Of a stretch of DNA of 64,000 nt, positions 35,226-37,683 are shown one piece after another. Both the position numbers and the translations under genes were made by a program. The DNA is taken from NCBI GenBank assembly GCA_036172245.1, contig JAYWIR010000028.1, positions 1,860,001-1,924,000 on the forward strand, in the 5' to 3' direction. The notes below the pieces were generated by a model. It was not told the origin of the DNA. It did no database searches and saw nothing but the letters and a program-made list of their open reading frames with translations. Positions within the stretch are counted from its first letter, which is position 1; every line of letters begins with the position of its first letter. The DNA is from Raillietiella orientalis. Taxonomy: Eukaryota.

Positions 35226-37683
35226 ATGATCCACATGGTTCATTCGATGTTAAGTATTATGCACCCCATCTCGTCGCTATGGTTGGACTTCCTGCCAGAG
35301 GAAAAACCATCACTTCTCGCAAACTGGCCAACTACATGAACTGGATAGGAAAAGCAACAAAGAGTAAAGCGTCCCTCTGCCTAAAAAAATTGTACTGTAC
35401 AATCTTGTTCTCCAGTTTTCTGCGTAGCGGATCACAGGCGTGAAGTCACTAAAGGAGAGTTCAAGAGTCACGAGTTTTTCTGTTCCAAGAACATAACAGC
35501 TGAACATCTAAGGAAACAAATAGCAGTGGCAGTTCTGGATGAAGCCATCAAGTGGCTTCAGGAGACTGGCGGGATAGCTGTGAGATCTGTCATATCGACT
35601 TAATGATCGTCACTTTTCCTCAGATATACGACGCCTTCAATTTGACTATCAAACGGCGGGAACTGATATACAAGAAAGTTGTCCGGAACAAAGGATTTCA
35701 GCTGTTTTTTGTCGAGTCTCTGTTGTATGACACTGATTTGATAGGTGGAAACATTAAGGTGAATGAATTGTTCGTCGGTACCAGAATCGAGTTTGCCTCC
35801 TTTTTTCCCCTTTTTCCCTCCTTTCATTTCATTTCCTCGTCATCCTTTCATTCGTAAGGTTCACACACCTGTGCGAGTTCATGCCATCCTCTTCGCTATT
35901 CGACATCCCCGGAATCGGACCAAAACCACCGATTTCGCAAACAGATTGCGGACGCTGCAATGCATCCGCAAATCGACAAATAATAATAACAATAATAATG
36001 AGTTACCCATGATTCAGTGGGTGATGCCTGCCCAGGAAATCAGCATGCACGTCAGTCACACAATCCCCCCCCCCCCCAGATGTATGCATTCGGGTATGAG
36101 AATGCCAACCGCGAAACATGGAAGCACATTGGTACTGGAATCTGGTACAGAACGAACTACACAGCCACTACTATTCTTCCGCCCCGGCTCTTGCCACCAT
36201 TCACCAGGGTAAAGTCATTCACGCAGCGCAGTGCGTGCGCACTATAGTGCACACGTACTACTACGTGGGAGCCGTGCGTCAGCACACGTGCACGTGCACG
36301 TGAATGTACGGTATTCGGAAAGCGCGCCACATTGAAACGCGGGACGGTTTCCACAGGAACAAAAAACCGACCTCTTCCCGATCGCTCAACTCTTTTTTTC
36401 CTGGGCAGACAACTGCGGTTTCATGGGGTGATTTACGCGCAGGACATGGCGAACAGCCCGGACTATGCGAGGAAGACCCCCGAGGAAGTTCTTTCAGACT
36501 ACAAAAGAAGGATTAAACAGTGCGAGGCGGTTTATCAGACCTTCAACGAGCACAAAGAGGCGCATCTTTCATACATGAAGGTGTATGAGGCTGGTACAAT
36601 CAACTGATCGAATGACAAGAGATCCTGCTCGATTTTCTTTTTAGGAAGAAAAGTGATAGTCAGTAAGGAAAGAACGAATCTGATATCAAGAGTTATCTAC
36701 TACTTGATGAATAGCCAGTACGGAGAGCGCGTCATCTATTTCGCAGCAGTAGGCTCAAACGCTGTCCCAGTCCCCCAAATGTTGACAACGACATGTTCTG
36801 CGCTAGGATGGAGAAAGCATTCTCAGGTCTCAAAAATGTATCGGTGGTGATTCGGGACTGACAGAGAGAGGTCTGGAGTTCGCTCAGAACTTGGGAGGTT
36901 ACCTTAATGAGCAACCTATACCGAATCTCAAGGTCTGGACTTCTTGGCAGAGAAGCTCCATCGAGACAGCTCACTTCATCAAAGCTCCCCAGAAGAGGAT
37001 CAAATCTCTAGATGATATAGACGTTGTAAGTTACACGAGATTTGGCGAACGCCACCCTTCCAGTACGAAAACTCCGATCATTCATCCATTCGGGGGAGGG
37101 GGGCGGGGGGAAGGAATGCCAATAGCATGAGATGTGCATCCAGCATCTTGGTGTGTCGAGAGATCTTCTACACACAAGCATTTTGCGTGCATTGCGGGGA
37201 AAGTCGCATCCTCGTGTGACGTACTTCTGAAAAAGCACGCCGCACGAGGATTTCAGAACCGCTACCAGTGAGCGCGCGTCTCTTTATCCTATGCCTACGC
37301 CCACGGCAACCTTCGGCAGCCCCAACGACCCCGATGTCGTTTCCTTCCAGGGTATATACAACGAGATGTCTTACGAAGAAATCAACGCTTTGTTCCCGGG
37401 CGATTTTCACACCAGAAAGCTGGACAAGTTCCACTACCGCTACCCGAACGGCGAATCCTACGAAGACCTAGTGAACCGGTTGGAACCAGTCATCATGGAG
37501 CTGGAGCATCAACAAGACATCATGGTCATAACCCACAAAGCAGTGCTTCGCTGTCTTCTGGGTTACTTCACCGGCCTAACACACAAAGAGCTTGTGGACA
37601 TGGCGATCCCTGTCCACACAATAATCAAGCTGATCTCCGGAGGCTACAATCCGAAAATAGAATACGTTGTCCTGAATGTCTGA
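35226..37683 (+). CDS. PFKFB: Divergent 6-phosphofructo-2-kinase/fructose-2,6-bisphosphatase family protein; start codon unresolved
   Basis: Exons 35226-35363, 35416-35579, 35624-35758, 36443-36593, 36645-36748, 36807-37025 and 37351-37683 are all GT-AG and phase-consistent. Motifs [58 protein letters not shown] and [12 protein letters not shown]. Confidence 0.92.

Follow-up and report, generated by a model that had tools for sequence, protein, structure and literature searches.

Animal PFKFBs (PF01591 and PF00300; PDB 1K6M, 1BIF, 2AXN, 5HTK) are described as bifunctional, and isoforms with one activity or with none have been described from fungi. In Saccharomyces cerevisiae, Pfk26 and YLR345W are likewise two-domain proteins, and their phosphatase is reported to be dead by replacement of the RH histidine (PMC13216928). 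The replacement in Pfk26 is His-to-Ser; according to this source, activity comes back when the His is restored, and the kinase is active. PFK2-B of Myceliophthora thermophila (ascomycete subfamily 2) is reported as a natural isoform that exists beside active paralogues, has its His replaced and had neither detectable PFK-2 nor FBPase-2 activity; it is widely conserved, and a low residual activity is suspected by its authors (PMC9721465). For vertebrate PFKFB4, roles without catalysis are known from engineered dead mutants, and an engineered double-dead PFKFB4 is reported still to rescue cell migration (PMC9348664). The S-Lap proteins of Drosophila provide a further parallel, being enzyme duplicates that are described as lacking catalytic residues and activity and as required in the germline (PMC6388916). 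A literature search that covered titles and the openings of abstracts, mostly of papers outside subscription, found no animal PFKFB that is naturally catalytically dead.

The gene described here is located on the + strand of Raillietiella orientalis contig C28 (210-Mb assembly), at positions 35226-37683 of the window, which is the whole 64-kb stretch of DNA that was analysed. Residue numbers are in rat-liver style and anchored on His258. This numbering was checked against an alignment with 1K6M, and His258 is used likewise in PMC9348664. Domain order and core length are those of animal PFKFBs, the match of the last coding exon to 1K6M has an E of 1e-33, and intron positions and phases are shared with the canonical paralogues of the same genome. 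Unlike canonical animal PFKFBs, the gene has lost RHG, N264, R307, E327, Lys174, Thr132, Tyr199 and the VDTHR tail, and it sits on a very long branch. It also differs from Pfk26, as five pocket residues and the kinase lysine have changed, and its origin is independent of Pfk26 because it is sister to the canonical copies of its own genome. PFK2-B is fungal and may be a parallel case; the S-Lap family is unrelated, so that this likeness is a functional analogy.

Extra copies beside a canonical gene likewise occur in two other arthropods, Diaphorina citri (P0270/P0271) and Artemia franciscana (P0259). These have His258 replaced by Pro or Thr and are also on long branches. They differ from our gene in having kept 9/10 and 10/10 kinase-site residues and in having lost more of the 6-phosphate site, and both are unannotated predictions. 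No literature on these phosphatase-dead copies was found. The Diaphorina model P0271 fuses the copy into what appears by eye to be a GAF-domain phosphodiesterase, which is probably a nested gene that has been mis-joined.

Gene structure, paralogues and origin

The gene has seven coding exons (35226-35363, 35416-35579, 35624-35758, 36443-36593, 36645-36748, 36807-37025 and 37351-37683). The original prediction had described the spliced CDS as open, and this holds: there are 413 open codons, a single terminal stop and GT-AG ends throughout; the frame is unbroken, and each of the six coding introns has both splice dinucleotides intact (12 in all). Six of the seven exons match PF01591 or PF00300 in the expected order, 6PF2K N-terminal being followed by histidine-phosphatase branch 1. 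The features of the locus are as follows.

31894..31966, + strand: candidate first coding exon, with an ATG at 31894 or 31933 and the best-scoring donor in 29001-35200
35226..35363, + strand: coding exon with the P-loop (PF01591, E 7e-10); phase and donor position as in paralogue B
35416..35579, + strand: kinase exon of 164 nt, equal to both paralogues
35624..35758, + strand: kinase exon of 135 nt, equal to both paralogues
36443..36593, + strand: kinase exon of 151 nt against 154 and 157 nt in the paralogues, one codon below paralogue B
36645..36748, + strand: 104-nt exon, of the same length in both paralogues, that links kinase and phosphatase; its last codon is Ala for Arg257 (36746-36748)
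36749..36806, + strand: 58-nt phase-0 intron between the former R and H catalytic codons, at the same position in both paralogues
36807..37025, + strand: phosphatase exon of 219 nt, as in both paralogues (PF00300, E 5e-5)
37351..37715, + strand: last coding exon (phosphatase) with the stop at 37681-37683, then a degenerate tail up to the donor; its flanking junctions are spliced in the C10 retrocopy
37716..37763, + strand: 48-nt intron 3′ of the stop, at the position of the paralogue tail intron and missing from the C10 retrocopy
37764..37815, + strand: first part of the last exon (3′ UTR in the assembly), aligned to the C10 retrocopy

The 5′ end is given as a candidate. The donor CAG/GTGAGT at 31967 is in phase 1, which agrees with the phase of the exon at 35226; the true donors of the gene mostly score below it, so that the first exon may also be a different one. 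Translation could alternatively begin at an in-frame ATG at 35279. No Pfam match was obtained for 19 ORFs, of which 18 lie in the interval from the candidate first exon to 35226 and one lies in the long intron. An (AT)n microsatellite (35170-35210) lies directly upstream of the purine-rich 35226 acceptor. The acceptor at 36443 has few pyrimidines and is preceded by an out-of-frame AG at a distance of 34 nt; of three nearby AG acceptors it is the sole open one.

At the 3′ end, the frame terminates just before the conserved C-terminal VDTHR tail, which is absent. The tail intron persists in the DNA 3′ of the stop, and the gene and the C10 retrocopy both have a degenerate THR motif. The stop at 37681 reads as a 2-nt insertion against the paralogue and as a one-base length difference against the retrocopy. 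Given the latter, it may be a real stop or may reflect a single-base assembly loss; THR is degenerate either way.

Two further features were noticed in the window. At ~38300-40350, on the - strand, downstream of the PFKFB gene and tail to tail with it, a GT2 glycosyltransferase domain is combined with a ricin-type lectin domain (PF00535, PF00652), a layout which suggests a polypeptide GalNAc transferase. At ~28120-28240, also on the - strand, a short segment with stops on both sides resembles by eye the C-terminal part of a cytochrome P450.

Elsewhere in the genome, two canonical paralogues, a retrocopy of the gene and several decayed fragments were detected.

C3, 5147.9-5150.0 kb and 5161.3-5163.4 kb, - strand: tandem of canonical PFKFB genes with all active-site residues kept
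C10, about 1113330-1113776, - strand: processed, broken retrocopy of the PFKFB gene, 73% identical over 474 columns
C48 ~499.6 kb, C16 ~1256.9 kb, C2 ~6936.0 kb and C21 ~1996.4 kb: decayed fragments of canonical PFKFB, 70-88% identical to the coding DNA

The tandem on C3 thus answers, with two genes, whether the genome has a canonical PFKFB; both have kept 6/6 catalytic and 10/10 kinase-site residues. Exon lengths are 164, 135, 154 or 157, 104 and 219 nt in the paralogues and 164, 135, 151, 104 and 219 nt in our gene. The tandem copies are 99.5% identical over a block of 1030 bp, which extends from a late kinase exon through the phosphatase exons and includes the introns, whereas dS reaches 0.59 between their 5′ halves; the block may stem from a recent gene conversion or from an artefact of the assembly. 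In paralogue A, Lys174 is immediately followed by a one-codon insertion and Ser177 is replaced by Thr, in the same loop where our gene lost a codon. All five decayed fragments carry stops, frameshifts or truncations, four of them being derived from canonical copies and one from the PFKFB gene itself; the C21 fragment crosses several exon junctions without introns.

Phylogenetic analysis was performed with a quick 69-row tree and a careful 27-row tree. In the latter, the two canonical copies of the genome form the sister group of the gene, within arthropods and with 100/98 support, and the end branch of the gene is 1.15 compared to 0.03-0.05 for the paralogues. Identity is 53% to paralogue B and 45-53% to canonical members. 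The gene is probably a lineage-specific duplicate of a PFK-2/FBPase-2 gene.

An orthologue was sought with single-exon queries, which an orthologue inside a 50% cluster could escape, and none was found. The exon with the dead site yielded 28 candidates and no match. The last exon yielded 302 matches, the best 120 of which were general PFKFBs with 50-61% identity. With HMMER, 182 matches were obtained among 1.84 billion representatives, and the 150 listed reached at most 55%, which is below the genome's own paralogues (58-62%). Among 167 aligned stretches from these 150 listed representatives, at least two catalytic positions differ in six, three of them full length; two are the Diaphorina and Artemia copies, each beside its canonical gene. 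P0204 is a further copy with a degenerate phosphatase and an intact kinase site. A shared clade of dead arthropod PFKFBs was rejected (p-AU 0.003 for a single origin, a value to which the long branches apply).

Phosphatase and kinase sites

The original prediction had assigned A, D, R, S and D to positions 257, 258, 264, 307 and 327, where R, H, N, R and E are canonical. The codons GCA, GAT, AGG, AGC and GAT confirm this, and the other motifs named there, HKAV among them, read exactly as stated. RHG has become A-D-G, and the exon at 36807..37025 carries H258D (36807-36809), N264R (36825-36827), R307S (36954-36956), N326D and E327D (37014-37016). H392 alone is kept from the phosphatase pocket N264, R307, H392 and the acid/base E327, which now read R, S, H and D. 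The last coding exon (37351..37715) retains Y338, R352 (37414-37416), K356, Y367, H392 (37534-37536) and R397 and carries D353K and Q393K; together with N326D, these are phosphatase-half changes that go beyond the earlier list.

The six catalytic positions show no substitution in any of 101 aligned homologues when gaps are set aside (the homologues being those of 120 listed matches that passed a length filter of 380-700 aa). Catalytic loss is enriched in our gene, with 5/6 catalytic residues changed compared to 22/81 other invariant phosphatase columns (Fisher P=0.010).

The proposed 36748/36807 junction is supported by homology: both C3 paralogues read IYFTR/HGESLLN, with a phase-0 intron at this point and flanking exons of 104 and 219 nt, so that the intron which splits Arg and His must be ancestral. 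It has been spliced out in the C21 retrocopy of the canonical paralogues. An alternative exon that restores RHG would have overturned the prediction, but none of the 24 open in-frame GT-AG combinations around the intron does so, and RHG codons do not occur on the + strand of 35201-37700. Since the junction is homologous and no alternative splice gives RHG, mis-splicing was rejected as the cause of the lost motif. Assembly error was rejected for the active sites because several exons are hit, several of the changes need at least two bases, and D327 and K393 are common to the retrocopy.

We therefore expect, with little reservation, that the protein has no bisphosphatase activity. The rat testis enzyme reportedly kept some activity after His-to-Ala mutation, via direct hydrolysis, but this route would need the arginines and the glutamate that are lost here. 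His-to-Ala is elsewhere reported as phosphatase-null (PMC12097583), and some motif-degenerate phosphatases are reported to retain activity (PMC13216928).

The 6-phosphate site, for which Y338, R352, K356, Y367, Q393 and R397 are given as bisphosphatase binding site (PMC12097583), has kept five of its six residues, with Q393K as the exception. As this is expected from a background retention of 73% (P=0.48), it is compatible with binding but does not constitute evidence for it. The idea of a coordinated loss of catalysis with retained binding is hence upheld in its first half, where the loss is enriched, and is not supported in the second, where retention is not in excess. Fewer of the six residues survive in three other phosphatase-dead copies (4, 3 and 2), whose background retention is lower or similar. 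In the 2-phosphate subsite, R257 and R307 are gone and positions 258, 326 and 327 are occupied by Asp, which is partly offset by R264 and K393. With both arginines lost and aspartates gained, Fru-6-P would be a better guess than Fru-2,6-P2 if a sugar is bound.

In the kinase half, the P-loop GLPARGKT (35285-35308) and T55 are intact. The exon at 35416..35579 has FCVADHRR in place of FNVGDYRR (N76C, G78A, Y80H) and keeps R81, R82 and R104; that at 35624..35758 has T132F (35636-35638) and C160L and keeps D130, N133 and R138; that at 36443..36593 reads DMANSPDY compared to EIKVSSPDY, thus being without Lys174, has Y199C (36521-36523) and keeps D179 and R195. Lys174 has no equivalent in either alignment register, the exon being one codon short. 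All six substitutions fall on near-invariant positions, and those of T132F, Y199C, N76C and C160L are 99-100% conserved in homologues. Of the Fru-6-P pocket (R74, R75, R98, D124, T126, R132, R189 and Y193 in PFKFB3), the five arginines and the Asp are kept while Thr is replaced by Phe and Tyr by Cys. PFKFB3 Thr126 and Tyr193, which correspond to T132 and Y199, are reported to line this pocket (PMC3177832), and K174G is reported to leave <5% of the kinase activity of PFKFB2 (PMC12097583).

At the kinase site, 3/10 residues are lost and 7/10 remain, which is no significant excess of loss over the background (P=0.49). This resembles relaxed constraint more than a targeted removal, yet it includes the residue that has been used experimentally to kill the kinase. 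The protein probably has little or no kinase activity.

Selection on the gene and its retrocopy

That the gene is not subject to random decay, as originally proposed, agrees with our analysis, which points to purifying selection. Compared to the paralogues, pN is 0.30 and pS is 0.70-0.73, and identity is 68/76/37% at codon positions 1/2/3. This corresponds to a dN/dS of about 0.15-0.2, a rough ratio because dS is near saturation and GC3 is 0.55 as against 0.86 in the paralogues. When neutral evolution was simulated to the same amino-acid identity (53% to paralogue B), not one of 1000 frames stayed stop-free. Retention is 74% at columns that are at least 98% conserved and 20% at columns conserved below 50%, and there are neither frameshifts nor internal stops within the two domains.

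The processed retrocopy on C10 served as a neutral control, with changes polarised by paralogue B. Neither the 325-nt intron nor the 48-nt tail intron is present in it, which would mean that the retrocopy arose at a time of germline transcription and splicing of the PFKFB gene. Since the two copies split, 24 polarised amino-acid changes have occurred in the retrocopy and 5 in the gene (P=0.0005; 11 are unpolarised), with 4 and 5 synonymous changes, respectively. The retrocopy has suffered 6 indels in about 360 nt, 5 of them frame-shifting, and the gene has none in the same stretch. Comparison of the gene with the retrocopy gives a pairwise dN/dS of 0.73, which does not fall significantly below 1 (P=0.22), and N/S does not differ significantly between the two branches (Fisher P=0.12).

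The retrocopy stops short of the exon part with His258, but it already carries D327 and K393. As it shares these two residues and subsequently changed at 24 sites compared to 5 in the gene, constraint is taken, on this comparison, to have persisted once the catalytic residues had been lost at least in part. Had the gene been dead for as long as the retrocopy, the indel rate of the latter predicts 7-17 frameshifts over its coding length (P<=0.001). This limits a very recent death of the gene without excluding it.

A putative double-dead PFKFB

An intact gene under purifying selection that has lost its catalytic residues would, by its sequence, qualify as a pseudoenzyme. We favour, with a probability of about 0.5, a selected double-dead PFKFB pseudoenzyme that is kept as a non-catalytic partner or scaffold. 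Such a protein would be retained for its fold and surfaces and not for catalysis, and it would act probably in germ cells. The segments NWIG and YYLMN, which we take to belong to the dimer interface, are kept. Dimerisation of PFKFBs is reported to occur mainly through the kinase domain (PMC13446353), and the protein may likewise form homodimers, or heterodimers with the two canonical paralogues. ATP and Fru-6-P may still be bound by the P-loop and the 6-phosphate pocket, in a passive or modulating role, and Fru-2,6-P2 turnover would be left to the canonical C3 copies. A more detailed proposal, which we consider rather unlikely, is a germline subunit that binds ATP and sugar phosphate with both sites off. 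Asp258 would stand in for phospho-histidine and keep the phosphatase domain bound to Fru-6-P, and heterodimers would set the kinase/phosphatase balance of the canonical paralogues.

The original prediction had offered a kinase-only enzyme or a Fru-2,6-P2 sensor. The latter is allowed yet unsupported, as the pocket is retained at background level. In a more general form, a dead phosphatase pocket would bind sugar phosphate, Fru-6-P being likelier than Fru-2,6-P2, and would relay its occupancy to a partner. This remains unlikely, though worth considering: Y338, R352, K356, Y367 and R397 are kept where the other dead copies kept fewer, N264R and Q393K add basic groups, and conservation within the protein peaks in 30-residue windows around the pocket (70-77% to paralogue B). 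However, the same segment is highly conserved family-wide, retention is as expected from background, R257, R307 and the VDTHR tail are gone, and three Asp line the 2-phosphate subsite. A kinase-only enzyme that still makes Fru-2,6-P2, perhaps slowly, has a reported precedent in yeast Pfk26 (PMC13216928) and could draw on the P-loop, T55, D130, R81, R82, R104, R138, D179 and R195, with kinase-site loss not being enriched. We regard it as improbable because Lys174, the target of the inactivating K174G mutation (PMC12097583), is lost in either register, and Thr132 and Tyr199 are replaced, as are Asn76 and Cys160 at equally conserved positions. The Diaphorina and Artemia copies, which do look kinase-only, are nearly or fully intact at this site.

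It is about equally improbable, or slightly more so, that a gene which was long constrained has recently been silenced and is now a pseudogene with its frame not yet broken. The stop right before the tail with its one-base difference to the retrocopy, the weak acceptors at 35226 and 36443, a first exon that is a candidate only, and the long end branch would all fit, but every splice dinucleotide and the frame are intact, and the frameshifts expected after a death as old as that of the retrocopy are missing. Very improbable, finally, is new chemistry, in which a rebuilt pocket (Asp258, Arg264, Lys393, His392) would act on another substrate. The changes do cluster in a single pocket with two gains of basic residues, but the nucleophile and both phosphate-clamping arginines are gone. 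To our knowledge, there is no histidine phosphatase with an Asp nucleophile. Some histidine-phosphatase variants with altered motifs are nevertheless reported to stay active (PMC13216928).

If the reading as a selected pseudoenzyme is true, this gene is a natural double-dead animal copy, with which it could be asked which surfaces of the PFKFB fold matter without catalysis. The two further arthropod copies with a dead phosphatase and an intact kinase would be easier to test, and there is a transcript-sized contig record for that of the psyllid. If psyllid and brine shrimp have separate phosphatase-dead copies, splitting of the bifunctional enzyme would be recurrent in arthropods, as it is in fungi.
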